DNA of 64,000 nt from Clostridiales bacterium (GTDB taxonomy: Bacteria > Bacillota > Clostridia > Oscillospirales > Acutalibacteraceae): assembly GCA_019418545.1 (NCBI GenBank), contig DYBQ01000003.1:1-64000 (forward strand), in the 5' to 3' direction. The notes beneath the pieces were generated by a model. It was not told the DNA's origin, searched no databases, and was given only the letters and a program-made list of their open reading frames with translations. The translations under genes were made by a program, and so were the position numbers. Shown one piece after another: positions 1 to 33,223 of the stretch (position 1 is its first letter; the number at the start of each line of letters is the position of its first letter).

Positions 1-3000
1 CGTCGTCCAGAACTGCCTTGGCGGCGGCCACAGCGTCCTCGAAGAACTTCTTGGCGCTGTCGGTCACACCTTCGGTGCTTTGCTTCAGCGCATACTCATA
101 GGTTGCCTGCAGCAGGCTCTTGTCGGGAGCCACATACTCTTCCAGACCTGCAATCGCGGCATTCAGAGCCTCTACAGCTGCATCCACATCATCCTGCGTG
201 GCTTCTGCGTTGTCATTCACTTCGTTAGCCTTAGCCAGTGCGTCGGCAAACACTGCCCAGCTGGCCTTGGTATAGTCGGCTTCGTCATACTGAGCGGCAT
301 CGGCGATTGCTGCTGCCAGTTCAGTCTTGTCAACGGGAGGTACATAGTCTTCCAGACCTGCGATAGCGTCGTTCAGAGCCTTCACAGCTGCATCCACATC
401 TGCCTGAGTGGCTTCTGCGTCTGCGTTCACTTCGTTAGCCTTTGCCAATGCATCGGCAAACACTGCCCAGCTCTCGGCGGTATAGTCAGCTTCTTGATAC
501 TGAGCTGCATCAGCAATAGCTGCTTCCAGCTCGGTCTTATCAACAGGGGTGGGCTCGGGGTTCTTGGCCAGAACACCCATCATGCTCCACTCATAAATAC
601 GGGTGGAAGGCCACTGAGCGGAGGTATCGCCCTTAGTGACGTTCAGACGGAAGTAACGGCCGGTAACAGATTCAGTAAACTCATAGTGAGTACGGTTTTC
701 CTGGTTGTTTTCATAGGAAGCAACCGTCGTCCAGTTTGCATCATTAGTCAGGAAGCTTTCGTCTGCCAACTGCTCAGCGGTGGGATTTGCTACATTGAGA
801 ATCTGCAATTCAAAATCGCGGGTATTGCGGCCGGAGCCATCACTGAGGTTGACACCTGCGTGGGACATATTCCACTCGGTCAGGGTGTAATATGCACCAA
901 CATCAATAATCAGCTGAGACTGTACTGCGTTGCCGCCGGGGCACCACTTGGTTCCTTCGTCCTTATCAAAGGCGAATTCAGGATCTTCCTTGGAGTTGTG
1001 GTCGCTCTGCTCGGTTGCATACAGGATGGTGGGATTGACGGTGATGTCCACAGGCGTGGTAGCCTCGCCGCCGTCGCCAACGATAATGGTCAGGGTGCCA
1101 ACGGTTTCATTCTCTGCATTCTTATAGGTAACAGTATAGGTGATGTCCTCTGCCAGAGACAGAACCGTACCCTCGACGGGTTTGAAGTTCTGGTCTGCAA
1201 CGGAAACAGTAAAGGTTTCGTCGGGCTTGGCATTTACATCTACATCCTCTGCCAGGAAGGACTTGCCGTTAATCAACTGCTCCTTCAGGCCGGCATATTC
1301 GTTGCCGCGGACGGTATAGGCCTTTTCTGCATAGGACATAACGTCCACAGTGCCCTCAGCGGAAACTTCCATGTTGATAGCTTCAGTGGGCAGGAAGTAT
1401 ACGCCGGAATACACGTTGGGATGCTGGTTGTCAAACTTAACAGCCTCTGCGGGTGCGCCGTCACCCTCATAAATCATAGCCTCTACCATAGCGGGCCAAT
1501 CCAGATATCCATCGGGATGGGGCTGCCATTCGGTAACGGTAATCTTTACATAGCGGGCGGTAACTGGGGTTTCCAGCTCGGCAACAGTTTCAGACAAGGT
1601 GTCTGCGGTGTCGGCGGGAACAGTGTTCAGGGTGCTGATGGTGGTATACTCACCGTCTGCAGTGTCGGAAATAGCCAGTTCAGCGGTCTTCACACCGAAG
1701 GGACGGAAAGGTGTATCGGTGTTGGTCTTAATCCAAATGCTCCAGGAGCCGATGGTCTTCTCAGAACCCAAATCCAACGTGACAGATGCAGGTTGGTCCC
1801 GCTTATTGGTAGCGGTTTCTGCGGCGTTGGTGTCAGTGCCTGTATTGCCATCCACAAACAGCGCTGCATTTGCTACGTTTTCGGAAGCGATAATAGTAGC
1901 ACTGGGAGCCAAGTTGACTTTGTCAGCACTCTGTGTTTCAACAGTTGCAGTAGCAGCCAGAGCTGCCTCTACAAATGCGCGCTCGGGAGTTCCTTCGCTC
2001 AAATCCAGCTTGTTGTCGGAAATATCAACGGATTTAATAGCTGCATATTCGCCAGAAGCGTCCAGCTTTTCAAGACCGAGGCCTGCCAGATTAACAGTTT
2101 CCAGAGCGGTACAGCCGCTAATGTTAACTTCCTTCAGTGCTGTGCACTTGTCCAGACCGGAAATGTTGGTGAGGGAGGTGCAGCCACTGAAATCAATACC
2201 TGTCATAGCAGTCAGGCGGTCCAGACCGGTCAAATCGCTGACCTCAGTACCAGACAAATCCAGAGTGCCAGTAAACTCTTCCAGCGTATCCAGAGTCAGA
2301 CCAACTTGCTCTTTCACAGCATTCAGCAGTGCTGCGTCGGGGAATTGCTCTTCGGTAATCAGATTGGTGGGGTCAACAACCTGTCCGCCTTCAATCATCA
2401 CAACCGTAGGCTCAGACTGGTTGCCGGCAAAGTCGCCAGTAACCACGCTCAGCAAACCATCGCCGCTAATACTGAAACGCATGGTTGCAGTAAAGCGAGC
2501 TACGCCGCCACGCTTGAAGCTGGCCACTTGCTTGCCGTTAAAGGTAGCAGTCATGGTGTACCAGTCAACGGAATCCGGGTCAACCAGCCGCACAGAGCTA
2601 CCGCTGACGCGGATATCTTCTTTGGCGATAGGCTCGGAATAGCTGTCGTTAGACCAACCGCGATAGCAGATGGGTTCGCCCTTCTCGCCGTCACGAACAG
2701 CATAAATCTTCAAATCGTACTCATAGCCCTCTTCCACGGGCAGGGGAATCGTTGCAGAAGTCACATCGCCGCTGGTGGTGTGGGTGTACACCTGATTGTC
2801 GGGGTCGTCCTTGGCAATGTTGCGCAGGGTGACTTCATACTCATAGCTGTCGGGAGCACCGGTTTCGGGAGCATCAAAGGAAACATCCAGCTGACCAGGG
2901 GTTGCTGCACGAACCAACAGACCAGTAGAGGTCTTGGCTTCTTCCACCTTGACATTGCTCACCTTGTCGGTATAGGTATAGGTCAGAGTTGCGGGGTCAC

Positions 3001-5529: not shown

Positions 5530-6075
5530 ATGAAATTAACAGAAAAAACCTTGGAACAGGAATATCTATTTCATGGTCGGATTATTCAGGTTCGCTTGGA
5601 CAAAGCAGAATTAGAAAATGGAGCTGTCGTAAACCGAGAGGTTGTAGAGCATCCCGGCGGAGTTAGCGTTGCGGCCCTTACTGACAACAATGAATTACTT
5701 TTTGTTCGCCAATTCCGTTATCCATATGGGGAAATTATGCTGGAATTGCCTGCAGGAAAACTTGAAAAGGGAGAAGACCCTTTTGAAGCACTAAAGCGGG
5801 AACAAAAAGAAGAAACAGGGACAACCGGGAAAAATTATATTTTCATGGGAAATCTCTATCCCACCCCCGGTTACTGCAATGAGATTATCCGTCTGTGGGC
5901 CTGTCGGGTAGATGATTGGGGGGAACAGAACCCAGACGACGACGAATTTATTGAGGTTGAGAAAATCCCGCTGGAAAAAGCCGTCGAAATGGTACTGAAC
6001 AATGAAATCCCTGATGCCAAAACCCAGTTAGGGATTTTGAAAGCTGCTGCATTGGTCCAATCTGGTAAACTTTAA
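5530..6075 (+). CDS. NUDIX hydrolase (ADP-ribose pyrophosphatase-like)
   Basis: NUDIX box GKLEKGEDPFEALKREQKEETG; RBS GGGAGGG 5 nt before ATG 5530. Confidence 0.85.
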   Translation: MKLTEKTLEQEYLFHGRIIQVRLDKAELENGAVVNREVVEHPGGVSVAALTDNNELLFVRQFRYPYGEIMLELPAGKLEKGEDPFEALKREQKEETGTTGKNYIFMGNLYPTPGYCNEIIRLWACRVDDWGEQNPDDDEFIEVEKIPLEKAVEMVLNNEIPDAKTQLGILKAAALVQSGKL

Positions 6076-6093
6076 TTTTTGAATTCATATGTT

Positions 6094-6136
6094 AAAAAAA
6101 GGGGGAGGAACCACAAATCCTCCCTCTTTATTTTGA
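6094..6136 (+). terminator. Rho-independent terminator
   Basis: GGGGGAGGA...TCCTCCCTC stem followed by TTTATTTTG. Confidence 0.7.
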
Positions 6137-6159
6137 AATCAAAAATTGTTACATATTTT

Positions 6160-6189
6160 TTATATTTTGCACAGGTTTTATGGTATAAT
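6160..6189 (+). promoter_or_regulatory. Candidate promoter with extended -10 (TGgTATAAT)
   Basis: TATAAT at 6184-6189 with TG at 6181-6182; poor -35. Confidence 0.4.
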
Positions 6190-6241
6190 GAGTACAGCAT
6201 CTCTCAATATAAAGCGATTATTTGTTGGAGGACTTTAAAAG

Positions 6242-6682
6242 ATGAAACGCCATGTTTTTTTCCGTGTAATCCCCATCCTTTTTGTTATTTCCTTGCTTTT
6301 TTGCAGCTGTTCTGCAAAAAGCACTGCTACTGCAGAGCAATTTCAAAGCGCAGCAGAAGATGTTGAATATACTGTAGAAGAACAGGATGCAGGGGGCCTG
6401 GTTAGTATCCATATGGCAACCAAAAATGATACTTCTGCCATGGTATTCTATGTCTGTAATAGCGAAGAAGAGTCAAAAAGTGCCTTTACCAGTTTAAAAG
6501 CTAATTTGCCAGAGGATGTTAAACCCGACGAAGTTGATTCTTCCTACTACAGCAAATGTACTGCTGAGAATGATGAATCCTATTATTCTATCATCCGTAT
6601 GGGCAGCACCGTGCTGGCCAGTGCTGTGGAACTTTCGGAAAAAGACAATGTATTGTCCGTTGTTAAAGCTCTGGGATATTAA
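6242..6682 (+). CDS. Hypothetical secreted/lipoprotein
   Basis: Signal peptide MKRHVFFRVIPILFVISLLFCSCS with a lipobox-like Cys; GGAGG RBS. Confidence 0.6.
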   Translation: MKRHVFFRVIPILFVISLLFCSCSAKSTATAEQFQSAAEDVEYTVEEQDAGGLVSIHMATKNDTSAMVFYVCNSEEESKSAFTSLKANLPEDVKPDEVDSSYYSKCTAENDESYYSIIRMGSTVLASAVELSEKDNVLSVVKALGY

Positions 6683-6702
6683 GCAAAAAATCTGTATTCA
6701 AT

Positions 6703-6756: not shown

Positions 6757-6761
6757 AATTC

Positions 6762-12601: not shown

Positions 12602-15600
12602 TCAGGCTCTATTTTTTCTTCTAACAATACACACCGCAAAGCCGCAGCCTGCCACAGCAAGAACAGCAACCAACCAAATCACATTGGTGGAATCACCAGT
12701 AACAGGAGATTGAGGTTTGCTGGTTTCGTTCTCCTGACTGCCGTTATTCTTGTCATCATCAGGCTTGGAAGTATCACCATTATCGGAAGCATCTCCGTCA
12801 TCGTTAGTGCTCAAGTTCTGGATAGCAGCTTTCAGTTCTTCCACAGCCTCATCCACTACTCCCTGGTCATCTTCGCTCAGAGTTTCGTCTGCCAGAACTG
12901 CCTTGGCATTCTGGAAGGCTGCCGCAAACACTGCAACACTTTCGGCTGTGTATCCGCTCAAATCCATTCCTTCGGCCTTATTTACCAAATCCTCCAGAAT
13001 CGACTTGTCTGCCTTAAAACGCTGAGCAAGAATCGCGTTCAGCAATGCTTCTGCTGCCGGCTCTATGTCTTCTTCCATGGCATCGCCGTCATTATAAATG
13101 TCCTTAGCTGCTGCCAGTGCGTCGATAAGCTGCTGCCAGTTATCCTGCACATACTTGTCAGATTCAGCCATCATTTCATCTGCCTTGGCAATCAGCTGCT
13201 CCAGCATGGTCTTGTCGCCCTGGGTCAGTCCCAGGCCCCAGATACCTTTCAGCAGGTTGTCCCATGCCGCATTGACTTCTTCCTGGGTTGCCTTTTCATT
13301 GTCCAGAACTGCCTTTGCCTCTGCCAGGGCATCCTCAAAGAACTTCTTTGCGCTGTCCGTCACACCTTCGGTGCTCAAAGCCAACGCATACTCATAGGTC
13401 TTTTGCAGCAGGGTTTTGTTAGCAGAAATCGGCGCAGACAGTTGAATGAATTCAAACTTATCTAAGTTCCATCCACCAGTAAGTACATTCAACCTAATGG
13501 TATACGTACCCGGTTCTGTAAAAGTCACTGTATCAGTAACTCTCTGATAATTCTGCCATCCTCCTGTTGTTGGTAAGTTTGTCACAGCAAGAGATTCTCC
13601 ATTAGCTAGAAATTCGACCTGTCCCATTGCGTTATTAACACTGACTTTATAATTGAGCTTATATTCTCCGGCGTTTTCAATATGAACTTGGTACTCCATC
13701 CAATCTCCATCATCAATATACGCCGCATAAGAACCATCGTTTTCCAGCTGAATACCACTTTGCTGTGTAAAGTCTTCTCCTTCAACGGTAATTACTTTCG
13801 ATTCATCAATCATGGTAAAGCTATAAGTATCACTATAAACCATCGGCTCTGCCATAACACAGGAAGCTACACGCCAGTAATAAGTTTTGCCAAAATCCAA
13901 ATCAGGCAGGGCTATTTCGGAATCTGAAGTCATTTGTGTAAACACAATATCTGTAAACGCAGAATCCGTTGCAACTTCTACCTGATAGGTAGTTGCATTG
14001 CTGCAAGGAGTCCAGGTCAGATAGTCAGGCTGTGAAATATTCTCCGCTTGATTATCAGGTCTTTGCAAAGTAACTCTTTCCACAGAATCGAATAGGGATT
14101 TCCCAGTCATAGCCTCTACTGTATTGATAATGTGAGTTTTCAACTCGTCGTAACCTTCCGGCTTTTCCGGCCAGCTGAACTTATTGTCAACCCAGGTATT
14201 GCTTCCATAGCCTTTATCAATGGTTCCTTGCTCCATAGACCATACCAAGTTGTTTTCTACTGTAATATTGTCAACTCCATCGTCCATATAGAGTGGGAAG
14301 GTCCAGTGCATTCCTTTTTCCGTTTTGATAATAATATTATTGGAGTAGCGGTTGTCATTTCCACAACCCCAAGCGTATAGTCCGCCGCCATCTTCAACGC
14401 CTGTCATATATTCGTCCACAATATTATATTCGATTACATTATTACGGCTATGTGTAAATTCTTTGACTTCTTCTCGTGTATAATCTTTGTGAAGTTCCAA
14501 ATCATCCCAACGGAATCCATATTGACGGTCCATATTTCCAAAGAAATCCCATGCAGCAGAAAATTTATCAGAATTAAAACCTACTGCAACTTCTCCAAGA
14601 ATCGTTACTCCGGCATAAGGAGACTTAGAAATATAGTTATAACTGATGGTATTTGAGCCACTCTGATATAGTGTAATACCAGCTGTATGCGGATAAGGAG
14701 CGAGTCCTAAATCATGGATGTTATTGTACATTACAGTATTATTTTTGTTAACATCCAATGTTCCAGGTCCATAACCAAAGAAATTCACGCCTCCGCTTCC
14801 CAAGTCACCAAGCTCATTTCCAAGAATCTCAATGTTTTGTGCATGATGGCTCAGTGTAATGCCATAGGAGCCAGAATGCTGAATTGTGCAATTGATAATC
14901 TGGCAATTTTCCGCATTTTGAAAATAAACCGAAGCATCAGGATTTTCAGTGTTTCTTATTACATCGTATTGGTCAAACTGACTTTCCGGCAAACGGTCAT
15001 TATATTCAATTACCAAATTACTCAGAGTAATGTGATGGACGAGATTTTCCCAATTTTTATCTTCATCATCGCCCTGGAATCGAACCAATTCATAAGGAAC
15101 AGGTGCGACAACCCTTTTGCTCGTAAAGTTGCTGTCTTTAGGCCAGTAATAGACCTTTCCTTCACGGCTATTTACACACCACTCACCCGGCTGGTCCAGA
15201 TATTTAATGTCATTCAGAATATTATACCAGCCGCCTTCTTTTGTATTAAAACTATTCATGTTATCGCCCAAATTACTGGGATTATAGGAATACAGATAGG
15301 CGGTGTTATCCTCTTCATTGATTTCAGTCAGCAAGGGCAAAGCATTCCAAAACATGACGGTCATACAGTTAACCTCAATGTCGGGATTATCTGTTAAACC
15401 ATCTAATTCTCCTTCGTTAAAACGGACTTTAATGCCTTTTTCAGGATTTAATTCCAAAAACTTACTGTCCTCTTCGCCAATTGCACCTGAAAACTGGGGC
15501 CAGGTACGAAATTGTTTGGTTTCCATTTGTTGAGAAATCTGCTGACATTCTCCGTCCACATACAAGTCGTGGAATCTCCAGCCGGTCTCAATATCAGCTA

Positions 15601-17069: not shown

Positions 17070-20000
17070 TTATACCGTTTTTCTGCGCCGTACCAGTGTA
17101 GCTGCTCCCAATACCATAGCAGCAAATATCATGATAATCCACTGCATATTTTGGCTGTTATCTCCAGTAGCGGGGGTTTCAGACTGATTGCCTTCGGCGC
17201 TGTTGTCATCAGTCGGTTTCTGAACGGAACTGTTACCATCATTGTTATCATTCTTGCCATCATCAGGCTTGGAAGTATCACCATTATCGGAAGCATCTCC
17301 GTCATCGTTAGTGCTCAAGTTCTGGATAGCAGCTTTCAGTTCTTCCACAGCCTCATCCACTACTCCCTGGTCATCTTCGCTCAGAGTTTCGTCTGCCAGA
17401 ACTGCCTTGGCATTCTGGAAGGCTGCCGCAAACACTGCAACACTTTCGGCTGTGTATCCGCTCAAATCCATTCCTTCGGCCTTATTTACCAAATCCTCCA
17501 GAATCGACTTGTCTGCCTTAAAACGCTGAGCAAGAATCGCGTTCAGCAATGCTTCTGCTGCCGGCTCTATGTCTTCTTCCATGGCATCGCCGTCATTATA
17601 AATGTCCTTAGCTGCTGCCAGTGCGTCGATAAGCTGCTGCCAGTTATCCTGCACATACTTGTCAGATTCAGCCATCATTTCATCTGCCTTGGCAATCAGC
17701 TGCTCCAGCATGGTCTTGTCGCCCTGGGTCAGTCCCAGGCCCCAGATACCTTTCAGCAGGTTGTCCCATGCCGCATTGACTTCTTCCTGGGTTGCCTTTT
17801 CATTGTCCAGAACTGCCTTTGCCTCTGCCAGGGCATCCTCAAAGAACTTCTTTGCGCTGTCCGTCACACCTTCGGTGCTCAAAGCCAACGCATACTCATA
17901 GGTCTTTTGCAGCAGGGTCTTGTCAACCACATGAACCACCACAGTGGCTTCCAAATTTTGCGGATTACTCAAACCTATTTTTTCGAGCGGGTTCGTGAAT
18001 GTTGCCTTTAAAGTATAGGTTCCAGCTTTATTTGCCTGATAACCGTCATCGTTCCACTGCACAGGCAGAAGATAGGAAGTCCCATCCTCCAAAATAACGG
18101 GAACTCTGCTGGGAAGTTCCAAGGACTCAAATTTTGTTCCGACAGATACAGTTGTTTCTTGTGCTGGAATCTCTGAAACTGTACCTACAGATACTTCTGT
18201 ATCTCCTCCGAACAATTCCAACTCATAAATTCGTGCAATTTTTGTTCCTTGATAAGCTTGTACCGGCTCGGGAATATAAAGTCTAATATATCTTGCTTTA
18301 ATTGTCTGGTCCAATGTACACTCTGTAATAGTTTCCGTATTTCCGGTCACTTCATCAGCCGTTATCCAATCTTCATCATTAGAGCCAGAAGGTGCCTCCA
18401 AATTGGAATACTGCAAAGAGAAATCCATTGTATTTTTGTCCATACCTTCACCGGCAATGTTCGCATGATACACACGCCAGCCAACAATCTCTTTCTCTTC
18501 ACCCAAATCAACAACTGCCCATTGAGGAGTTCCTCTATCCGAACACCATTTGGTTTCAATATTACCATCTGTCAGGCATTCTTTCTGTTCAGTGGGCCAA
18601 TCTGTATGAGAAGATACTTCCACTACTTCTTTATTCAACGCAACATTATTATTGACAGTAATATACCATTTTCCCACTGCCTTACCGTCTACCATAGCTT
18701 TTACCATCGTGCTGCCTTTACTAATAGCAGTCACTGTACCATCCTGGTTTACCATGGCAACAGATGGATTGGAGGATATCCATGTGAGTTCCTCTGGCAA
18801 AGAATCATTATCCAAATCTTTAGTATTTCCCAACACCATGTTGACTTCCTGGATTTCTACAGTAGAATCCGTATCCTCCAGCCAGCCGCCTTCTGCCTCT
18901 GCTACTGCAACAATCTTATCGTACAATTCCTGATATCCATCAGGCGGAGTGCTCATGTTAGAAGAAGAAAGATTATCGGTAAAGGTATTGTCACCCTTGT
19001 TTACCGTACTAGTCTGAGGTGCCCAAATACGGTTCCCTTTCAAAATGGTACCATCCACTTCATCGTCCATATAGAGCGGATAGACCCAACCGTGTCCGGA
19101 TTCAGACTTATAGATAATATTTTCTTCAAACAGGTTTCCAACATCACATCCCCAAGTATACAAGCAACCGCCATCATCGGTTTTCATCATGTATTCTTCG
19201 GTAATATTGTGACGAATTACATTATATCCATCGTGCTTGAATTGTTTTACTTCTTCACGAGTAAAATCGCCGCCATCTGGATGCAGCTGCAATCTAATGG
19301 GGTCTAACTCTTCATAACGGGCGCCATACTGGCCAAAGAAATTACCATAAGAATCCACACCAAAATGACGAGTTCTCTCGGCATCTCCCGGGATAAATCC
19401 GCTCATAACCTGCCAGTTGGTTCCTGCAACAGAAATTGAGGAATAGGGGACATTTTCAATCTTATTGTATTCGATTTCATTGTGGTTACTGCCAAATATA
19501 CTAACAGCACCTGCATGCATATAGGGAGCAAGACCCAAATCAGAAATGTAATTCCGTCTAATTACATTGTGATGGTTAACGTCCAGGGTACCTGCACCAT
19601 ATCCCATCAGTTCAATTCCACCTGCTCCGGTTCCAACAATGCTGTTCCCTACAATTTCGTTATTCTGAGCATAATGGCACAGGGCAATACCATAAGTACC
19701 AGTATTCTTAATTTTGCAGCCTTCAATCACACAGTTTGCAACGCCATCCATATAAATAGCTGCATCGGGATTTTCACTATACCGCTTTACCCAGTCAGAG
19801 GGGAATTCATCTTCCGGAAGACGGTCTGTGTAGGAAAACTCCAAATCTTTGAGGGTAATATACTCAACCTGATTTTCAAAGTTTTCTTCTTCTTTATCTC
19901 CCTGGAATTCCACAATCCGATAGGCCTTAGGAACGATTACCTTTTGTGTTTCCAAGTCCTCGTCTTTGGGCCACAAATAAACTTTGCCATTCTCAGAATC

Positions 20001-21743
20001 TACACACCATTCTCCAGCTTCATCAATATATTTATAAGCATTCATGATGTTATAGGTTCCAGCACTACTGTCAAAAATCGAACCATCCACAAAATAGAGC
20101 GGATTGTACGAATTCATATAGGCAGAATTTTCTTCATAATCAAAGTCTCTCAACACGGGCAATGCATTCCAGAATCCAACTGCCATCAAATTAATCTCAA
20201 TGTCGCCATTGTCGGGCAATCCCTCCAGGCTGTTGTCTCCAAAATAGATTTTATGGCCCTTTTCCGAATCAAATTGGGGATTGACATTATCATTGATAGA
20301 AAGGTCGAATTTAATCCAATTTTTAAAGCTGTCACTATTTACCTGACGAGAAACCTGCTGACGTTCTCCATCAATGTACAAATCATGGAATCTCCAACCT
20401 TTTTCTACATCAGCTACATAAATATGACCTTTGGCTTCTTCGGTAGTATATGGAAGATTTTCATCTGCCTTTTCCCAATTTGTAATCTCCTTACCGCTTG
20501 TAATCACGGCTTCCTCACCAGGATAAGAGGTATATACAATGGGCTTTCCAACTTCACCGCTGTCTTCCGGTGTAAAAGTAATGGATTCATCCTGATAATA
20601 TTCACCGCCGCGCAGATAGACCGTGACACCGCCTTCTGGCAACACTTCCAGCTCACGAATCGTGTCGCGAGCCTTTTGTATCGTGGCAAAAGGTGCTTCC
20701 TCAGTACCGGCATTCTCATCTGAACCGTCAGGAGAGCCATAGTAGAAGGTCTCACACTCTGCAGTTTCATATACCGTTACCGTACAACTATCCGTTTTAG
20801 ATGAATCGGATGCTGATGCTGCTGTAATGGTCGCCGTGCCTGCTGCTACACCAGTTACTGTGCCATTTTCGTCCACAACAGCTACATCCGTATTGTCACT
20901 GCTCCAAATCAAATTTTTGTCCGAAGCAGTGGAGGGGCTTATAGTTGCCAGCAAAAGGATTGTTTCACCTTTTTCTATATTGGCCTCATTTTTGTCCAGT
21001 TCTACTTCTTCTACTGGAATTTTTGTCTCCACACCGATAACTTTTACATTATCCACCGACATATCACATCCGCCGCTCTCAAATCCTATGCCTCCATAGG
21101 AAAGAGCAGGGCCGTTGCTTCCATCATCAACAAAACTAAGTATGGGTTCTCCATACTCTGCTCCCTTTTCCGTAACATAAGCAAAAACGGTCGTTCCAGT
21201 AAAGTCCAGCTTAAGCTGATAAGTTTTCCCGACCTCCAAAGGATACTCCGTTTTGGCAATCGTGTGTCCCGCATTACTATAAAACTTATTCAATTCCAAA
21301 ATCTGGGACTCCCGACGATAATAAAGACCCAGTTTGCTTCCATTTTGAACATGACCCATCAATCCCAGGCAGTCATACTGCTTCATGCCGGCATCTCCAT
21401 GGTCAATCCATTCGTTAATAACAAAGTCAGCTTCTAAAGAATAATCCGTCCATTCAGCCTTGTTTGTATTTAAATAAGCTTTTCCATCCCACGGTACGCC
21501 GCGAATTTGAAACCAGTTATTCCCCTGGTCATCATTTTTAATCGTATATTCTCCTGTTTCAGCAAACTCCCAACCAGAAGGGATTTCTCCGTTCTCAAAA
21601 TCTTCTTCTAATAAAACCGTATTTTCTGTCTGCACACTTTCTTCCGGAACCACTTTGGCTGACCCTATCATTTGCAGTCCGATTACAAGAGCCAGCATTC
21701 CGCTTACAACCTTTTTTACTGTTTTCCCTTTTAACAATGACAA
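17070..21743 (-). CDS. Cell-wall-anchored multidomain beta-helix protein, paralog B (1557 aa)
   Basis: TTG start with RBS AAGGGAGG. Same LamG-Big_2-beta-helix core as A, plus an extra Big_2, an F5/8-type-C discoidin-like domain and an Ig-like domain. FIVAR cassette; PATGD + TM + RRRK sorting signal. Confidence 0.9.
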   Translation of the reverse strand: MSLLKGKTVKKVVSGMLALVIGLQMIGSAKVVPEESVQTENTVLLEEDFENGEIPSGWEFAETGEYTIKNDDQGNNWFQIRGVPWDGKAYLNTNKAEWTDYSLEADFVINEWIDHGDAGMKQYDCLGLMGHVQNGSKLGLYYRRESQILELNKFYSNAGHTIAKTEYPLEVGKTYQLKLDFTGTTVFAYVTEKGAEYGEPILSFVDDGSNGPALSYGGIGFESGGCDMSVDNVKVIGVETKIPVEEVELDKNEANIEKGETILLLATISPSTASDKNLIWSSDNTDVAVVDENGTVTGVAAGTATITAASASDSSKTDSCTVTVYETAECETFYYGSPDGSDENAGTEEAPFATIQKARDTIRELEVLPEGGVTVYLRGGEYYQDESITFTPEDSGEVGKPIVYTSYPGEEAVITSGKEITNWEKADENLPYTTEEAKGHIYVADVEKGWRFHDLYIDGERQQVSRQVNSDSFKNWIKFDLSINDNVNPQFDSEKGHKIYFGDNSLEGLPDNGDIEINLMAVGFWNALPVLRDFDYEENSAYMNSYNPLYFVDGSIFDSSAGTYNIMNAYKYIDEAGEWCVDSENGKVYLWPKDEDLETQKVIVPKAYRIVEFQGDKEEENFENQVEYITLKDLEFSYTDRLPEDEFPSDWVKRYSENPDAAIYMDGVANCVIEGCKIKNTGTYGIALCHYAQNNEIVGNSIVGTGAGGIELMGYGAGTLDVNHHNVIRRNYISDLGLAPYMHAGAVSIFGSNHNEIEYNKIENVPYSSISVAGTNWQVMSGFIPGDAERTRHFGVDSYGNFFGQYGARYEELDPIRLQLHPDGGDFTREEVKQFKHDGYNVIRHNITEEYMMKTDDGGCLYTWGCDVGNLFEENIIYKSESGHGWVYPLYMDDEVDGTILKGNRIWAPQTSTVNKGDNTFTDNLSSSNMSTPPDGYQELYDKIVAVAEAEGGWLEDTDSTVEIQEVNMVLGNTKDLDNDSLPEELTWISSNPSVAMVNQDGTVTAISKGSTMVKAMVDGKAVGKWYITVNNNVALNKEVVEVSSHTDWPTEQKECLTDGNIETKWCSDRGTPQWAVVDLGEEKEIVGWRVYHANIAGEGMDKNTMDFSLQYSNLEAPSGSNDEDWITADEVTGNTETITECTLDQTIKARYIRLYIPEPVQAYQGTKIARIYELELFGGDTEVSVGTVSEIPAQETTVSVGTKFESLELPSRVPVILEDGTSYLLPVQWNDDGYQANKAGTYTLKATFTNPLEKIGLSNPQNLEATVVVHVVDKTLLQKTYEYALALSTEGVTDSAKKFFEDALAEAKAVLDNEKATQEEVNAAWDNLLKGIWGLGLTQGDKTMLEQLIAKADEMMAESDKYVQDNWQQLIDALAAAKDIYNDGDAMEEDIEPAAEALLNAILAQRFKADKSILEDLVNKAEGMDLSGYTAESVAVFAAAFQNAKAVLADETLSEDDQGVVDEAVEELKAAIQNLSTNDDGDASDNGDTSKPDDGKNDNNDGNSSVQKPTDDNSAEGNQSETPATGDNSQNMQWIIMIFAAMVLGAATLVRRRKTV

Positions 21744-25710: not shown

Positions 25711-25751
25711 TGTGCGCACCTCATATTTTCGTGCCGATAGCCCCTATGGTA

Positions 25752-28076
25752 TCAAGTTTCTTCTTCATCTCTCTTAGAAAATTCGCGCGGTGTACAATGA
25801 TAGGCCTTTTTGAATAATTTATAGAAATAGGTACTGTTTTCAATACCGATTTCCTTGATAATCTGATTAACCGTATAGTCTGTATTCTGCAGCAAGGTAG
25901 CCGCTTTGCTCATTCTCAGGTTTACGATATATTCATTGAGAGAAAGCCCTGTACTTTCTTTAAACTTATGCATAATATACCGAGGCGAAAGTGCAAGAGA
26001 ATCTCCTATCATTTGGGAAGAGAGATTCACATCACTATAATGAGCTTGCACAAAAGCAATTACCGCACTAATCAGACTATCTTTAGCATTTTCTTCCGCT
26101 TCTTTTTCTGTATCCAAAATTGAAGTAATATACTGCTTTAGCTGTTCTATTGCTTCTTCCAGGGTCTCTGATTGGGCAGCTTTTTGATAAATAGCATTAA
26201 AATTAATATTGGATAATATTCTTTGTTCCCGTATCATTTCGTTAAATATCATATTAATTTGCGTAATCAACGCCATCATACAGGTAGTAGCGCTGCGATA
26301 TTGGAAGGTAGAAATGATATTGGAAATTTCTTCAATTGCCACCAAAGTACTATTCAAATTCTTGGTTTGAATTGCTGATTTAAGCTTCACATCCAACTCA
26401 TATGAATAGTGGCTCTGCTGATTATTTAAATTAAACCGACAGGTCTCATGATACAAAATTTCTCCCAACCCGAACAGATACCGATACTGTAAATATTCAC
26501 GGGCTTCTTTCAGTAAGTCTGTCAGGCTATGGCGGTTAACCGAATAGTTGCTCAATGAAACGGTTAGTGTTAAATCCAGATGCTCCAATATTAAATTCTG
26601 ACATTCCTTAATCAGTGGAATGAGGGAATCTTCCAATGCCTCTCCCTCTGTGTATCCTGTGAGCACACACAAAGTATCCGTACTCATAAAAAAGCAGGAG
26701 TAGGCACGCTTTTCTGATATTTTTTCATGAATGATATTTTCAACAGCATAGGTCATTAACTGAATATCAGATTTATCAAAATGCGTGTTGCCTGTAATAT
26801 CTTCGATTTTAAACAGGATAATTCCAACTGGGATATTGCTAATCAACCAGTGTGATGGGTTATGTTTTTTAAACTGCTCCAAACGCTCCGGGGTACTGTC
26901 CATAACCATTTGTGACAATTCATATTTCATAACCATAGGTTCATGTTCCTGCTTGGCTTTTTGAAGCAGCTGATTTTGCCGCCAAGTAGTACGATAGGCC
27001 TCCCGGAGATAATCAAATTCATTCTGATATTTTTCCGACTCCGATTTTGATTCCCCGAGTCCAGAAATAGAGGTAACAAATTCTTGTACAGGAGAATAAA
27101 GCTGTTTCGACACCAACACCAGCATCAGTAATGCAAGGAATCCAAATCCCATACTGATATACAGCATATCGTTTTTCAATTGTATTAAGTCTTCAAAAAT
27201 ATAATCGTATTCCTGTATCAGCACAACCGCATTGCTTTGATTATTTAAATGAATACCAGAGACAATATATGTTTTCCCATCATATTTTGTCTGATAGGTA
27301 AAAATACCATCTTCGTTCTCCGCTTCCAGATGATTCCAATAGTCTTTTACCAAATACTGATGAGCTTTTGAAACAGTATTGGCCTCTGTCTCATAAATTT
27401 CGCCTAACTGATTACTCAAATAAATATTTCCATGAATTTTATCTTTTTCGGTTTGCGCGCTAATATTCTCTATAAACCAGTTTACGTTTTCGTTTACCAC
27501 TACATAGCCTTCTGTCCCTTTTGTTGGGTCATTAAATTCATACATAAAGTAGGAAAATACGTAGTATGATTTTTCTGAGCCATTGATGGTATGCGTCACT
27601 TTTCGAAGAATGGGCTGCAAACAAGGAATAGAATCCTGACTTTCGACAAAATTTGCCAAGTCGTCCGGGTCAAAGGTACTTGCAGATTCCGTCGAAAAAT
27701 ACTGGTCGTTATTTGCATTATAAATGGTAATAGAGTCAATAGACGGATAAACCATAAGGGATGTATCATGAATTTGCTGCATATAGGTAATTGCATCATA
27801 ATAATCCATGATATCCGTATACATAACCGTTTTTGTTTTATTATCCATAAATACTTCCATACATAAATTGGAAGTGACCGAACTGAAGTAAGTCATGTTT
27901 GCCTGTATTTGATTTAAAATACTTGTATTGGAAGAAGTGATACTGGACATAATCTTTTGATTGGACAAATGGTAGAGTAATAGAGAAAAAGGAATTTGCA
28001 ATACAACAACGAAAAGCACCAAAAATATCCAAATTTTTTTATAGTACTCTCTTCCGTGCAGTTTCTTGAATATCAT
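25752..28076 (-). CDS. Membrane-anchored AraC-family one-component regulator (TM, extracytoplasmic sensor domain, TM, cytoplasmic AraC HTH)
   Basis: Two TM segments flank a ~270-aa extracytoplasmic domain. C-terminal AraC HTH signature ...SPRYIMHKFKESTGLSLNEYIVNLRMSKAATLL...YFYKLFKKAYHCTPREF. Confidence 0.8.
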   Translation of the reverse strand: MIFKKLHGREYYKKIWIFLVLFVVVLQIPFSLLLYHLSNQKIMSSITSSNTSILNQIQANMTYFSSVTSNLCMEVFMDNKTKTVMYTDIMDYYDAITYMQQIHDTSLMVYPSIDSITIYNANNDQYFSTESASTFDPDDLANFVESQDSIPCLQPILRKVTHTINGSEKSYYVFSYFMYEFNDPTKGTEGYVVVNENVNWFIENISAQTEKDKIHGNIYLSNQLGEIYETEANTVSKAHQYLVKDYWNHLEAENEDGIFTYQTKYDGKTYIVSGIHLNNQSNAVVLIQEYDYIFEDLIQLKNDMLYISMGFGFLALLMLVLVSKQLYSPVQEFVTSISGLGESKSESEKYQNEFDYLREAYRTTWRQNQLLQKAKQEHEPMVMKYELSQMVMDSTPERLEQFKKHNPSHWLISNIPVGIILFKIEDITGNTHFDKSDIQLMTYAVENIIHEKISEKRAYSCFFMSTDTLCVLTGYTEGEALEDSLIPLIKECQNLILEHLDLTLTVSLSNYSVNRHSLTDLLKEAREYLQYRYLFGLGEILYHETCRFNLNNQQSHYSYELDVKLKSAIQTKNLNSTLVAIEEISNIISTFQYRSATTCMMALITQINMIFNEMIREQRILSNINFNAIYQKAAQSETLEEAIEQLKQYITSILDTEKEAEENAKDSLISAVIAFVQAHYSDVNLSSQMIGDSLALSPRYIMHKFKESTGLSLNEYIVNLRMSKAATLLQNTDYTVNQIIKEIGIENSTYFYKLFKKAYHCTPREFSKRDEEET

Positions 28077-28240
28077 CAATGAATCGCTCCCTTATCTATT
28101 ATCACTTTCTGCGCCGGTATTTCCCTTTCACTGTATATTCAAAATACTTTTCTGCATGGAAAACAGGAATTTTAAACCGAAAAACTCAGAAACAACTTAC
28201 TAATTTTTATTTATTATATCATTTTTTACCTGTTTTCTCA

Positions 28241-28315: not shown

Positions 28316-31300
28316 TTAACCCTCAGTATATTTGCGACGAAAAACGAAAACAACTGCAAAACCAAACATTAATCCAGTAAACATTAATAACAAATCTGTA
28401 TTGCTGTCTCCTGTTTCTGGTATCTGGGAATTATTATTTTCATCGGTGGGACTATTCGAAGAAGTTTCATTTCCAGAAGTACCATTGTCCGGCTTGCTGG
28501 CGTTATTATCTCCCTTACCATCATCAGTATCGGGCTTACCAGTATCGGCACTCAGATTTTCAATGGCATTTTTCAGCTCAGTTACGGCCTCATCTACCAC
28601 AGCCTGGTTATTTTCGCTCAGTGTTTCATCTGCCAACACCAGATTTGCATTGTACAGAGCAGCGCGGAATACTGCCACACTTTCTGCTGTATAACCGCTC
28701 AAATCCATTCCTTCTGCCTTGTTAACCAGCTCTTCCAGAATCGATTTGTCCGCCTTAAACCGCTGGGCCAAAATTGCATTCAGCAGAGCTTCTGTTGCCG
28801 GCTGTACATCTTCTTCCATAGCGTCGCCGTCTGCCATCACTTTTTTGGCCTCAGCCAGGGCATCCACCAGCAGCTGCCAATTGTCCTGCACATACTTGTC
28901 CTGGTTAGGAATCATAGCCTCTGCCTTAGCAATCAGCTGTTCAAACAAAGTCTTGTCGCCTTGTACAAGTCCCAGACCCCAAATGCCATCAAGCAGATTG
29001 TCCCATGCAGTATTGACTTCTTCCTGAGTTGCCTTAGCGTCATCCAAAACGGCCTTGGCTTCTGCTACTGCTTTTTCAAAGTATGATTTTGCGCTATCCG
29101 TCACACCTTCTGTGCTCAGGGTCAAGGCATAGTCATAGGTTTTCTGCAGCAGGGTTTTATTGGGAGCCACATACTCTTCCAGACCTGCAATCGCATCATT
29201 CAGAGCCTTTACAGCTGCATCTACTTCTTCCTGGGTAGCTTCTGCATTATCGTTTACTTCATTTGCTTTTTCCAGCGCATCCGCAAATACTGCCCAACTA
29301 GCCTTGGTGTAATCAGCTTCTTCATACTGCGCTGCTTCTGCAATTGCATTTTCCAACGCAGTTTTGTCAGCAGCAGGAACGGCAGCTACTACACGGACAT
29401 TGTCTACTTCTGCATATTCACGGCCAAAACCAATACCGATACCACCTGTGGCACGCATCTGGTCAGTTTCAAACTCATAAATCAGCTCAGAATCAATAAA
29501 GTAACGCACACGATTTCCAAGGTGTTCTACGCGGCAATGATAGGTTTTTCCAGTCTCTACCACAAATGGGCTTCCTGTAGCAAAAGTAGTCCAGTTATTT
29601 CCTTTTCCCATCACAGCTTCCACTATGCCACTTTTTCTCATTGCCAACTGATTAAATTGACGAGGATTCAAACCAGTTCTGGATACCAGACCAATAGCAG
29701 AATACTCTTCAGCCCCATCCTGATAACCTGTGATGGTAATATCAGCTTCAAAGGCGTAGTCAGACCAATCAGCAGTATCATTGTTAACAAAGAATTCCTG
29801 CCAGCTGCCATCGTATTTCATTACACCGTTTTCGGTTTTTACTTCGCCTCCCTGCGGGCTGACCCACAGTTCGCTTGCACCATTATCAAAGTTATCCTCA
29901 AACAGGACTTCTACTTTTCTTGTGGTAACGGCAACAGGCTCACTGGCTTCTCCTTCACCTTTCTGGTTAGATGCGCTTACCTTATATTCATAGGTTTTTT
30001 CCGCAGCTACATTTTCATCGAGATAAGAGGCCGAATCAATATTTTCAGCTATTTTTTCAAAGGTATCTGTGCCTGCTTCCCGGCGATATACGGTATAGGT
30101 ATAATGATATCCTTCTTCCCAGGAAATCATGACTGCATCATAATCGTTTTCCAGCTTGATTTCTGTGGGAGCTTCGGGTACAGTTTCTTCTTTGGTAGTG
30201 ATTACAAAAATTTCGCTCTGGCTGTTTGCACCTGCCTGTCCCAAAGCAGAAACTCTCCAGTAATAAGTTTTGCCATAATCCAGTTCTACATCATCTATCC
30301 GAGTTTTTGTAGTTTCCTGGCTTACCAGAATATCTGTAAATTCAGCATCAGAGGCAATTTCCAATTGATATTTCGCTGCATTTTCAGAAGCATTCCAAGA
30401 AAAGTCTACAACAGGAGCCAAGTCTTTTGCATTATTTTCGGGAGAAGAAAGTACCGGTACGCCCAGAGGAGCGGTTTTAAAACCACCGACTGCTTCTTCT
30501 GCCTGATTCATAATGGACTGATACAACTCGTCATAGCCAGCGGGCTTATCAGGCCAACCATACTGGTTATCAATATAGGGGTTGTCACCCTTATTCAGTT
30601 CTGCCTGGTCAATTGCCCAAATACGGTTTCCTTCTACAGTTGCTCCATCAGTATAGTCGTCCATATACAACGGCCACAGCATATGACGTCCCTTTACTGA
30701 CTTATGCATGACATTAAAGCTGAAGCTGTTGCCCAAGCCAGGATACCAAGCATACAAGCATCCGCCATCATTCATATCCGTCATATACTCTTCGATGATA
30801 TTGTATTCTACTACATTATTGACCGAGTGCTGATATTCCTTGCAGTCCCAGCGGCCAAAGTCTTTTCCGCCCAGCTCGTCCCAACGGATGTTATATTGAC
30901 GGTGTTTATCGCCAAAAGTATCATACGATGCACGGGTATCAGGGGTAGAAGCCGACATACTGTTATGGTCTGTTCCCATAATACTAAACGCTGTATATGG
31001 AACATTGGTAATATAGTTATAGGTCAACGTGTTATAACCACTTCCAAACACACTAACAGCCGGGGAATGAAGATAAGGTGCCCGTCCGGTATCATGGATA
31101 TTGTTATACATAACGGTATTATGGTGGTTTACATCAGTAGTGCCTACACCATATCCATTAATCTGGACGCCGCCGCATCCTAAATCGCCCAATTCGTTTC
31201 CGATAATATTATTATTCTGTGCGTAATGGTCCAGTGTTACCGCATAGGTTCCCGAATGACGCAGAGTACAATCAGTAATTGTACAATTTGCTGTTCCCTG

Positions 31301-33223
31301 GAAATAAACCATAGCATCGGGGTTTTCGGCATTTCTTACCAGCCAGTCATCTCCAAACTGGTTTTCGGGAACACGGTCGGAATATTCAATGGTCAAGCCA
31401 CTGAGAGTAATATATTCTACCTGTTTTTCCCAATTCTGCTCTTCTTCGTCTCCTTGGAAGCGAATCAATTCATACGGTTTTGGAGCAATCATTCGGCTGT
31501 CTTCAGGATTGCCGTTTTCCGGCCAGTAATACACTTTGCCTGCTTTACTGTCGACACACCATTCACCAGGTTCATCGATAAATTTCAGTGCATTCAGGAT
31601 TTGGTAGTAACCATAATCATTATCACCAAAAGTGGCAGGGTTCATAGATTGCAGATAGACTGTATTAGACTCTTCATCAATTTCCGTCACAACCGGCAAA
31701 TAGTTCCAGTAAACTACTGGCATCAGATTAAGTTCAATGTCCTCGCTGCCATTGAGTCCATCCAGCATACCGTCCTGGAAGGTTGCCAAAATTCCCTTTT
31801 CTTTGTCAGGAGCTGCACGGTGAACCATCGTCGGCCACTGTCCCCAGTCATTGGTATTGGTACTGCGGGAAACTTGCAGCCGCTTTCCATCGGCATACAA
31901 ATCGTGGAAACGCCATCCGGCTTCTACATCTGCAACATACAGGTTTCCTTTTGCAGCATCAGAAACATTTTCCAAATTTTCATCTGCAAGCTGCCATCCG
32001 GTAATTTCCTGTCCGCCGGTAATCACTGCTGTCTCTCCAGGATAAGAAGCATACACGATAGGTTTATCCCGTTCGCCGCTGTCTTCTGGCGTAAAGGTTA
32101 GGGTTTCTCCCTGATAATATTCGCCTTCCCGCAGATAAACCGTCACACCACCCTGCGGCAAAACCTCCAGATTGCGGATTGCATTGCGGGCAGCCTGAAT
32201 CGTTTGGAAAGGAGATTCCTCTGTTCCGGGGTTCTCATCATTTCCGTTGGGAGAAACATAGTAGAAGGTAGTACACTCGGGCACTTCATAGACTTCTACC
32301 TGACACTGGGCGCTGACTTCAGGAGCGGATGCAGATGTAACGGTAATCACAGTAGTACCTGCTGCAACAGCCGTTACTATGCCTTCGTCGCTCACTTGTG
32401 CCACATTGGAATCAGCACTTTCCCACACCAAAGATTTATCAGAAGCATTTTCCGGTGTAACAGATGCAGAAAGCGATGCTGTTTTCCCTGCTTCCAAAGA
32501 CATTTCACTTTGGCTGAGGGTGATTGTCTCCACAGGAATCTGATGCTCAATTCCCGTCACCTTAAAGTTATCAACCCAAAAATCTCCATACACACCTTCA
32601 ATGGAAACGCCGCCAAAGGTAAGGCTTGGACTTTCGGTATCTGTGTATGTAATGACAGGTTCTGTAAATTCCTGTCCTTTTTCCGCAAAATATGCCCGGA
32701 TTACATTACCGTCAAAATCCAGCTTCATATGATAGTCTTTCCCAGTATCCAATGTAAAGGGCACTTCCATAATTGGATGACCCCATCCATCATAGAATTT
32801 ATTCAGTTCCAACACTCCACGTTTCCGGTAATACAAACCCCATCGGTCTTTGCTGGCGGAGCAGCGTCCGGAAATGCCAATGCTGTCATATTGTCCGTTA
32901 TATTCCGAAGGCTCAATCCAATGGTTAATCCGAAAATCCATTTCGATTGAGTAATCAGTCCACTCTGCTTTTCCCAAATTCAAATAAGCAGATGGCCAAT
33001 CACCTGTAACATTCCAAACTTTATTTCCTGTACCATCATCTACAATCTGCTCAGACAAATCAATATCCCAACCTTCCTGGACATCACCATCAAAGGTTTC
33101 ATAAAACAGAACATTGTCTTCCTCTGCTTCAGCTGTAGGTTCTGCTAAAACAGGAATCGCTGTCTGCACCAGCAAAACACCTGCGAGCAGCAGGCTTCCC
33201 AGTGCTTTTTTCCAGGATTTCAT
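28316..33223 (-). CDS. Cell-wall-anchored multidomain beta-helix protein, paralog C (1635 aa)
   Basis: Signal peptide; LamG/DUF1080; Big_2; beta-helix; two FN3-like domains; a second LamG/DUF1080-like domain; three FIVAR-like repeats; diverged copy of the C-terminal cassette; PETGD + TM + RRKYTEG sorting signal. Confidence 0.9.
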   Translation of the reverse strand: MKSWKKALGSLLLAGVLLVQTAIPVLAEPTAEAEEDNVLFYETFDGDVQEGWDIDLSEQIVDDGTGNKVWNVTGDWPSAYLNLGKAEWTDYSIEMDFRINHWIEPSEYNGQYDSIGISGRCSASKDRWGLYYRKRGVLELNKFYDGWGHPIMEVPFTLDTGKDYHMKLDFDGNVIRAYFAEKGQEFTEPVITYTDTESPSLTFGGVSIEGVYGDFWVDNFKVTGIEHQIPVETITLSQSEMSLEAGKTASLSASVTPENASDKSLVWESADSNVAQVSDEGIVTAVAAGTTVITVTSASAPEVSAQCQVEVYEVPECTTFYYVSPNGNDENPGTEESPFQTIQAARNAIRNLEVLPQGGVTVYLREGEYYQGETLTFTPEDSGERDKPIVYASYPGETAVITGGQEITGWQLADENLENVSDAAKGNLYVADVEAGWRFHDLYADGKRLQVSRSTNTNDWGQWPTMVHRAAPDKEKGILATFQDGMLDGLNGSEDIELNLMPVVYWNYLPVVTEIDEESNTVYLQSMNPATFGDNDYGYYQILNALKFIDEPGEWCVDSKAGKVYYWPENGNPEDSRMIAPKPYELIRFQGDEEEQNWEKQVEYITLSGLTIEYSDRVPENQFGDDWLVRNAENPDAMVYFQGTANCTITDCTLRHSGTYAVTLDHYAQNNNIIGNELGDLGCGGVQINGYGVGTTDVNHHNTVMYNNIHDTGRAPYLHSPAVSVFGSGYNTLTYNYITNVPYTAFSIMGTDHNSMSASTPDTRASYDTFGDKHRQYNIRWDELGGKDFGRWDCKEYQHSVNNVVEYNIIEEYMTDMNDGGCLYAWYPGLGNSFSFNVMHKSVKGRHMLWPLYMDDYTDGATVEGNRIWAIDQAELNKGDNPYIDNQYGWPDKPAGYDELYQSIMNQAEEAVGGFKTAPLGVPVLSSPENNAKDLAPVVDFSWNASENAAKYQLEIASDAEFTDILVSQETTKTRIDDVELDYGKTYYWRVSALGQAGANSQSEIFVITTKEETVPEAPTEIKLENDYDAVMISWEEGYHYTYTVYRREAGTDTFEKIAENIDSASYLDENVAAEKTYEYKVSASNQKGEGEASEPVAVTTRKVEVLFEDNFDNGASELWVSPQGGEVKTENGVMKYDGSWQEFFVNNDTADWSDYAFEADITITGYQDGAEEYSAIGLVSRTGLNPRQFNQLAMRKSGIVEAVMGKGNNWTTFATGSPFVVETGKTYHCRVEHLGNRVRYFIDSELIYEFETDQMRATGGIGIGFGREYAEVDNVRVVAAVPAADKTALENAIAEAAQYEEADYTKASWAVFADALEKANEVNDNAEATQEEVDAAVKALNDAIAGLEEYVAPNKTLLQKTYDYALTLSTEGVTDSAKSYFEKAVAEAKAVLDDAKATQEEVNTAWDNLLDGIWGLGLVQGDKTLFEQLIAKAEAMIPNQDKYVQDNWQLLVDALAEAKKVMADGDAMEEDVQPATEALLNAILAQRFKADKSILEELVNKAEGMDLSGYTAESVAVFRAALYNANLVLADETLSENNQAVVDEAVTELKNAIENLSADTGKPDTDDGKGDNNASKPDNGTSGNETSSNSPTDENNNSQIPETGDSNTDLLLMFTGLMFGFAVVFVFRRKYTEG

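Follow-up and report, generated by a model that had tools for sequence, protein, structure and literature searches.

What do the giant surface-protein genes at the start of this stretch of clostridial DNA encode, and do they work together? The stretch analysed, referred to below as the window, comprises 64,000 nucleotides of a Clostridiales bacterium (assembly GCA_019418545.1, contig DYBQ01000003.1, positions 1 to 64,000). Its first 33 kb carry four such genes, g1 to g4, all on the minus strand (1..5152, 12602..16948, 17070..21743 and 28316..33223, from the open reading frame (ORF) listing and translation). The original prediction took them for four paralogous surface enzymes which share an anchoring cassette and together form a sortase-displayed apparatus for host N-glycans or mucin. 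The explanation considered probable here is that the four encode Sec-secreted multimodular glycoside hydrolases (GHs) carried on a common C-terminal display module, with g2, g3 and g4 being enzymes of the GH141 type.

The proteins encoded by g2, g3 and g4 are 1448, 1557 and 1635 residues long, respectively. g1 is a single open frame of 1717 codons cut off at the window start; the ORF of 1709 residues which overlies it on the plus strand (80..5209) was rejected as a compositional shadow. In all four cases the N-terminus is basic and then hydrophobic, resembling a signal peptide, and the Pfam domains agree with a description of the genes as secreted, multidomain and running in one direction. Their description as paralogues holds for three of them. 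Over the first ~1000 residues g2, g3 and g4 are mutually 47–49% identical by BLASTP, while g1 has only the C-terminal FIVAR and cassette region in common with them; the group is therefore better described as three paralogues and one unrelated enzyme with the same tail.

Predicted catalytic modules of the four secreted proteins

All three paralogues are GH141-like, predicted wall-anchored proteins of similar layout, encoded on the minus strand. In g2, a concanavalin/PF06439-like N-terminal domain (16235-16837) is followed by a Big_2 domain (15983-16201), a GH141-like beta-helix with an insertion domain (14084-15946), an fn3-like module, a CBM6 carbohydrate-binding module (13445-13783; Pfam, E 5e-22), a cassette of three FIVAR stretches (12809..13420) and, finally, a D/N/G/S-rich linker with the motif SPVTGD, a hydrophobic segment and an RRKNRA tail (12605..12808). 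Pfam recognises in this protein Big_2, Beta_helix/NosD, a borderline GH141_M, a Pel9A-like N-cap, CBM6 and three FIVARs. g3 begins with the same N-terminal domain (21024-21638), Big_2 (20793-21014) and GH141-like module (18864-20765), and continues with a second Big_2, an F5/8C domain of the CBM32 type (18222-18614), Big_4 (18000-18155), the cassette (17313-17924) and a linker with a TPATGD signal (17073-17312); its Pfam content is two Big_2 domains, the same beta-helix signals as g2, F5/8C, Big_4 and three FIVARs. In g4, the N-terminal domain (32534-33127), Big_2 (32327-32536) and GH141-like module (30464-32290) are followed by Ig and fn3 domains (29927-30406), a second copy of the N-terminal type of domain (29393-29920), a canonical FIVAR (29180-29368), the cassette (28550-29161) and a linker with an IPETGD signal (28319-28549). 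Here Pfam finds Big_2, the beta-helix signals, Ig, fn3 and four FIVARs.

The nearest solved relative of the beta-helix by sequence is PDB entry 9RX2, a ‘Parallel beta-helix repeat protein’ of 717 residues (chain 9rx2_A), which phmmer matches to residues 326-900 of g2 with an E of 7e-67. It is ~34% identical to g2 and g4 over ~550 residues and belongs to the same widespread family, differing in that it is a single-module protein with a lipoprotein-like Cys at its start and neither FIVAR nor anchor. No paper on 9RX2 or on a ‘parallel beta-helix repeat protein’ was found. In the same single-sequence search BT_1002, the founder of GH141, was matched in the N-cap only. Among 5.8 billion proteins, 606 relatives of the beta-helix were found at E<=1e-10, all of them generically named, from Paenibacillus, KSB1, Armatimonadota, Bacteroidota, Verrucomicrobiota and other groups. 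The best match to the catalytic region in this collection is 49% identical, and the window proteins themselves are not in it.

A family alignment of 37 sequences, including periplasmic and lipoprotein forms of Bacteroidota and Verrucomicrobiota, was used as a profile (A1) against the PDB. It matches 9rx2 with an E of 3.8e-147 and BT_1002 (5mqp) with an E of 1.5e-59, in three stretches covering profile positions 25-600. The fold agrees with this. An AlphaFold2 model of the g2 beta-helix region (pLDDT 90.9, pTM 0.93) has 5mqp as its top Foldseek match (E 4e-31, TM-score 0.68-0.72; 9RX2 is absent from the fold libraries compared), followed by GH120 XylC at 1e-13; GH110, GH136 and PL9 are far weaker. 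These are the five families with which the original prediction had proposed a comparison. A beta-sandwich insertion in the beta-helix after the N-terminal cap, a hallmark of GH141, is present in the window modules.

In BT_1002, residues D523 and D564 are essential by mutagenesis and are reported to be catalytic (PMC10154630, PMC12786026). They correspond to D528 and D569 of the PDB chain, +5 being the sole offset that places an Asp at both positions. In the 37-sequence alignment every residue of the D523 column is an acid (29 D, 8 E), the D564 column is invariant (D in 37/37), and many other residues on the active face are also invariant. Both acids are found in g2–g4, in the contexts DGG(G/C)LY and LYMDD; in full-length g2 they are D853 and D889. 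Given the full-length profile match to BT_1002, the beta-helix modules of g2–g4 are likely to belong to GH141 or at least to a sister family, and the suggestion that their family may be new gives way to known relatives, 9RX2 and BT_1002, found by profile, fold and catalytic Asp columns. The relationship is distant: identity to BT_1002 of Bacteroides thetaiotaomicron (5MQP), Xyn141E and the Wf141 endo-fucanases is only 18–23%. The window enzymes differ from these in being Gram-positive, predicted wall-anchored proteins of 1450–1640 residues, to which a LamG-like N-terminal domain, Big_2, carbohydrate-binding modules (CBMs) and FIVARs have been added. A search of the wider GH141 literature found no characterised close relative.

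The ~200-residue N-terminal domain was described in the original prediction as LamG/DUF1080. Its copies in g2–g4 and the second copy in g4 (residues ~1102-1277) are 31–44% mutually identical. Searched directly, the domain had no Pfam match at E<0.05 and no match to PDB sequences, and a word-based homologue search returned one fragment only. A HMMER profile built from the four window copies retrieved 690 proteins (E<=0.001). Ten of these were scanned, and seven of them have PF06439 (3-keto-disaccharide hydrolase, formerly DUF1080) in the matched or a neighbouring region; several also contain Laminin_G_3. The assignment is thus supported at superfamily level, only transitively, through these profile matches. 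The domain is best regarded as a divergent member of the PF06439/LamG superfamily, and is treated here as a putative lectin-like module and not as an enzyme.

g1 is a different enzyme. Its GH85 domain (~3794-4807) scores 189 bits against PF03644, for which the cutoff is 22.2 (E 1.6e-55), and aligns with pneumococcal Endo-D (2w91) in a phmmer search of the PDB (E 1.4e-47). The Asn and Glu of the GH85 motif have catalytic roles in Endo-A and Endo-D, and this NQE motif is aligned between g1 (GFDGYFLNQEE) and Endo-D (GYDGYFINQET). Pfam also finds GH85_C, an EndoS-type leucine-rich repeat (LRR) region (2012-2344; E 3.9e-33), an EndoS Ig-like domain, two F5/8C domains (1517-1870 and 644-973) and FIVAR, confirming the GH85, LRR and discoidin modules that had been named for this gene. 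Two canonical FIVARs (137-544) precede the first 41 residues of the cassette (2-124), and the C-terminus lies beyond the window start. Since its GH85 domain aligns to Endo-D and its LRR and Ig-like domains are of the EndoS type, g1 is, by sequence, an ordinary Endo-D/EndoS-like endo-beta-N-acetylglucosaminidase. With Endo-D of Streptococcus pneumoniae it shares the GH85 domain, the NQE motif and the form of a large secreted surface enzyme, and it differs in having two extra F5/8C modules and the clade-specific FIVAR cassette.

The FIVAR cassette and its sorting signal

The cassette is ~204 residues long and consists of three divergent FIVAR (PF07554) repeats, helical units of ~70 residues. Pfam FIVAR scores, for which the cutoff is 29.2, reach 59–83 bits in g2–g4 and 48.6 in the truncated g1, and each protein has two to four stretches. 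That all four proteins end with the same cassette is confirmed for g2, g3 and g4; in g1 only the first 41 residues fall within the window, and these are 80% identical (tblastn). At protein level the cassettes of g4 and g2 are 80% identical. The canonical FIVAR which precedes the cassette is common to g1 and g4 (82% over 110 residues).

Between g2 and g3 the similarity is of another order. Positions 12754-13414 in g2 and 17258-17918 in g3 are identical over 661 bp, with zero mismatches, and the similarity ends abruptly at both edges. The block encodes residues 1179-1399 of g2 and 1276-1496 of g3, that is, the cassette minus its first few codons together with the very start of the linker; the two genes have different sorting signals, which lie outside the block. 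The rest of the two genes, ~1000 codons, is only ~49% identical in protein. Closer relatives with the full architecture exist elsewhere, one 86% identical to g2 (P0242) and another 62.5% identical to g3 over 1330 residues (P0245). Since these are closer to g2 and g3 than g2 is to g3, the duplication appears to be old and the identity of the cassettes recent, which indicates gene conversion. The GC content at third codon positions (GC3) is 0.49–0.55 in the cassettes of g2–g4, compared with 0.38–0.39 in their heads, and this contrast may point to separate histories for the two parts. Raised GC3 as proof of a foreign origin of the cassette was dropped, since other window genes span the same range (0.37–0.53, with the substrate-binding protein (SBP) at 0.53 and Rnf at 0.48).

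As predicted, the three full-length proteins continue with a D/N/G-rich linker and a sortase-type signal, which is tripartite: SPVTGD in g2, TPATGD in g3 or IPETGD in g4, then ~20 hydrophobic residues, then RRK. The xPxTGD variant was found in 15 relatives, and all cassette ORFs of relatives end in a similar motif (APTTGD, VPKTGD, APKTGD, SSETGD and others), after which come a hydrophobic segment and a tail of K/R residues. The LPXTG-type model of NCBIfam scores 28.9 against g4, under its cutoff of 47.

A protein search with the cassette gave 519 matches, mostly short gene fragments; the named entries belong to Pseudoflavonifractor and include partial proteins. The nearest relatives of the cassette are found in Pseudoflavonifractor and in metagenome-assembled genomes (MAGs) of chicken- and human-gut Clostridia. 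Species-representative genomes with the cassette include Candidatus Heritagella gallinarum, Candidatus Enterenecus faecium and uncultured Lachnospiraceae/Clostridiales MAGs, and these often have three copies per genome. The heads fused to it elsewhere are varied: GH101 with accessory domains, GH123, a beta-helix with CE2_N, DUF7402 with F5/8C, InlB-type repeats, and GH30 (split by a frameshift). On public MAG contigs frameshifts have often separated the cassette from its head, as with a GH30 head and a separate FIVAR ORF of 314 residues on one contig (L003, 2324-7121) and DUF7402 and a separate FIVAR ORF of 244 residues on another (L004, 7164-10735). Within a genome the cassettes are 87–89% identical in one MAG, 74–85% in another and 80–100% in the window; between genomes the range is 43–79%. 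Higher identity within genomes, despite unrelated heads, is the pattern that would be expected of concerted evolution or of repeated module exchange.

The original prediction described a multi-enzyme surface system built on this cassette. The cassette is not special to the locus: its occurrence on GH101, GH123, GH30 and DUF7402 proteins speaks for a stalk used generically for display across the clade, and it is, on this comparison, a common annotated module in its usual role. The order signal peptide–GH–CBM32–FIVAR–LPXTG has already been published for other Gram-positive gut bacteria (PMC13096917). The GH89/GH36 enzymes of Hoskinsella mucinilytica (PMC13096917) and LnbX and HypBA2 of Bifidobacterium share with the window proteins the succession of signal peptide, head, binding modules, FIVARs and sorting signal, and in NCBIfam the window FIVARs align with LnbX and HypBA2 at their C-termini and with ZmpB in an internal region. 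The window proteins differ from these surface glycosidases in having a fixed cassette of three FIVARs which is partly identical among neighbouring genes, and in their sorting motif, xPxTGD in place of LPXTG.

Neighbouring genes and cytoplasmic partners

The sugar ABC importer, membrane AraC regulator and 3-keto-sugar-type oxidoreductases that had been described around the four genes are all present. Just upstream of g4, which starts 41 bp downstream of it, lies a gene for a cytoplasmic protein of 354 residues with no Pfam match (33265-34329). Further upstream, likewise on the minus strand, are a lipoprotein SBP with DUF3502 (34430-35962; Pfam, lipobox), two ABC permeases (36039-36929 and 36944-37933; Pfam, transmembrane scan), a URO-D/MtaA-like protein (38388-39452), a protein of 629 residues with a weak match to the GH127 catalytic domain and a Cys-rich C-terminal end (39449-41338), and a 3-keto-sugar-type set (41584..44973; Pfam) made up of a YbjQ-like, a GFO/IDH/MocA, a ThuA-like and a second GFO/IDH/MocA protein. 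A hydropathy scan of the URO-D/MtaA-like, 629-residue, GFO/IDH/MocA and ThuA-like proteins found no signal peptides. The ThuA-like protein of the window was found on just two Logan contigs of ~1.6 kb. The AraC-family regulator (25752..28079, minus strand) has 775 residues and two predicted transmembrane segments (residues 12-40 and 303-328). The locus has the layout of a Gram-positive polysaccharide-utilisation locus, with extracellular GHs, an SBP with two permeases and a regulator co-localised.

Gene spacing and consensus sites together suggest the likely transcription units. The genes at 33265..37933 are probably co-transcribed with g4. A promoter-like site precedes the AraC gene (28241-28213; 11/12 with TG, the best in the region), and a hairpin terminator with a 16-bp stem (21971-21937) lies upstream of g3, before which there are also promoter-like sites. 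On this basis g1 would be transcribed alone, g3 with g2, and the ABC importer through g4 together with the upstream cytoplasmic genes.

The closest complete homologue of the paralogues for which the gene context is available, P0002, is a protein of 720 residues, 48% identical to g4 and without an anchor, encoded in another organism (locus L018, on Logan contigs). Its neighbours (regions 5963-9982 and 13488-16931) include two permeases, an SBP, two proteins of 629/695 residues, two URO-D proteins and a protein of 355 residues. Identities between the window and L018 by BLASTP are 58% for the 629-residue protein, 43% for the 354-residue protein, 37% for the URO-D-like protein and ~31% for the permeases. 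Over the ~20 kb of L018, Pfam called no GH85 or recognised host-glycan enzyme, several genes there having no match. Because of these partners, the GH141-like enzyme appears to be tied to a cytoplasmic pathway of its own, and its substrate should not be taken from g1. A sequence search of the PDB with the 629-residue protein, alone or as a three-sequence profile, found no solved relative.

The remaining genes lie between or beyond these. The 7.4 kb between g1 and g2 hold a NUDIX gene on the plus strand, four Rnf-type genes, the gene for ribulose-phosphate 3-epimerase (rpe) and ~1.2 kb of small ORFs. The Rnf/Nqr-type set (6762-10156, minus strand) consists of two RnfA/E-like proteins, one RnfD-like and one RnfC-like protein with 4Fe-4S; its ORF calls overlap (7325-7945/7908-9077/8906-10156), so that start codons will have to be revised. 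Two genes with WYL domains and one for an SPFH/Band 7 protein (22018-25719, minus strand), which lie between g3 and the AraC gene, were not counted among the parts of the system; PADLOC gives only generic WYL signalling models for them, and they may be regulators or defence-related. Outside the locus, a LytTR response regulator is encoded together with a GHKL histidine kinase and AgrB on the plus strand (49619-52381), an agr-like quorum-sensing set. The one rRNA gene found in the window is a 5S gene (62689-62805, minus strand; Rfam, 79 bits), which adjoins a PRD/CAT antiterminator gene (62972-63835); no 16S, 23S or tRNA genes accompany it.

Weighing the explanations

Several points weigh against the explanation given at the outset. 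The GH141_M scores, at 25.4–28.0 bits, straddle the Pfam gathering threshold of 27. GH141 is reported to be very diverse, with 69 clusters in a sequence similarity network, 36 CUPP branches, and RG-II (rhamnogalacturonan II) fucosidase, xylanase and endo-fucanase activities (PMC12786026); these are too varied for specificity to be transferred. Among the larger ORFs of the window (roughly >=130 residues) Pfam found no sortase; the xPxTGD motif is without the canonical Leu, and g2–g4 could stay tethered to the membrane by the C-terminal helix. The locus contains no gene for the ABC ATPase. The GFO/IDH/MocA and ThuA-like genes are not conserved in L018, and their tie to g4 is by position alone. 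To these may be added the chance, discussed below, that the identity of the g2 and g3 cassettes arose in assembly.

Two further, non-exclusive readings are, even taken jointly, doubtful. In the first, the cassette may be a recombination handle by which heads such as GH85, GH141-like, GH101, GH123 and GH30 are moved or homogenised on a genome-specific stalk; the reason for homogenisation would possibly be that the stalk binds a genome-specific wall partner. In the second, the set made up of the GH141-like enzyme, the 629-residue GH127-like protein, two URO-D/MtaA-like proteins and the 354-residue protein may constitute an undescribed Gram-positive pathway, the target of which may be a plant sugar that is branched or O-methylated, for instance in side chains of the RG-II type. 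No literature on loci combining URO-D and GH127 was found. Such a set would echo the adjacency of BT1002 (GH141) and BT1003 (GH127) in the Bacteroides RG-II locus, which is a lead and not evidence.

Unlikely, next, is the single sortase-displayed apparatus of the original prediction, in which all four genes would serve the breakdown of host N-glycans or mucin, the substrate being read from the GH85 domain. The four genes do share a strand, a cassette and 33 kb of DNA; the F5/8C modules of g1 and g3 are of the CBM32 type, which often binds Gal/GalNAc; and the cassette is found elsewhere on the mucin-type enzymes GH101 and GH123. However, g1 is cut off from g2 by the intervening NUDIX, Rnf-type and rpe genes and small ORFs, and its composition differs, with a GC content of 53% against ~44% and a GC3 of 0.61 against that of the g2–g4 heads. 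g3 has a terminator and promoter context of its own, the L018 genes with a Pfam match include neither a GH85 nor a host-glycan enzyme, and plant or algal glycans are the substrates of the GH141 enzymes characterised so far (PMC10154630, PMC12786026). The claim of one N-glycan or mucin apparatus is not sustained by these results.

It is quite unlikely that the beta-helix modules are polysaccharide lyases like those of PL9, or a truly new catalytic family. The A1 profile does reach PL9 5olq, with an E of 1.3e-5, far from the value obtained over the full length of BT_1002; the PL9 match covers ~300 core residues only, compared with 516 for GH141, including the insertion domain; and acids are kept at both columns of the GH141 catalytic Asp residues.

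Very unlikely is an assembly artefact, in which a repeat was collapsed or copied to give the identical 661 bp of g2 and g3. The cassette repeat evidently degrades assembly and gene calling, and the short fragments and partial proteins among its public homologues suggest that it breaks assemblies. Against this, both copies are in frame, end sharply at the domain boundary and are flanked on each side by unique sequence, and the similarity of within-genome copies elsewhere (74–89%) is also unusually high, which fits real concerted evolution. Least likely of all are non-catalytic adhesins like pneumococcal PfbA, since a proven hydrolase is matched far more strongly than the adhesin, the acidic pair and many active-face residues are conserved across all 37 diverse members of the family, including its periplasmic and lipoprotein forms, and the beta-helix genes have a sugar importer and sugar enzymes of the cytoplasm encoded in linkage with them.

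For four secreted GHs on a common display module, with g2–g4 of the GH141 type, the data show the domain content, the fold, the conserved acids, the anatomy of the sorting signals, the DNA identity and how the cassette and partner genes are distributed; we infer hydrolytic activity, sortase anchoring, operon structure, the substrate and a scheme of import and processing. The three FIVAR three-helix repeats would form a rigid stalk, the low-complexity D/N/G/S/K-rich spacer would cross the peptidoglycan, and the xPxTGD motif with its hydrophobic helix and R/K tail would serve a sortase encoded elsewhere. g1 would act on N-glycan cores. The old paralogues g2–g4 combine a PF06439/LamG-like N-terminal domain of lectin type, Big_2 and the GH141-type beta-helix with its inserted beta-sandwich with different binding modules (CBM6 in g2; CBM32-type F5/8C and Big_4 in g3; Ig, fn3 and a second LamG-like domain in g4). 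Their most likely target would be a single complex polysaccharide, hydrolysed at different linkages or in different contexts by means of a carboxylate pair equivalent to D523/D564 of BT_1002. The released oligosaccharides would be taken up by the ABC importer, which is co-oriented with g4 and close to it, and processed by cytoplasmic proteins, namely the GFO/ThuA oxidoreductases, the GH127-like protein of 629 residues and two URO-D-like proteins. Gene conversion or module exchange would keep the cassette uniform within the genome.

Display on a FIVAR stalk is a standard Gram-positive design, and current understanding is not overturned here. The novelty is modest and lies in the 661-bp conversion tract, the three-member GH141-like series and the uncharacterised conserved cytoplasmic set. 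A surface glycan-degrading locus is now cleanly annotated in a lineage of Clostridia of which public protein collections contain almost nothing. A large family named only ‘right-handed parallel beta-helix repeat protein’ appears to be of GH141 type and is probably catalytic. For experimenters, the three paralogues with their different binding modules are a natural specificity series, and the exact identity over 661 bp is a neat case of gene conversion restricted to the display module. The recurring GH127-like and URO-D-like cytoplasmic partners mark an uncharacterised downstream pathway.

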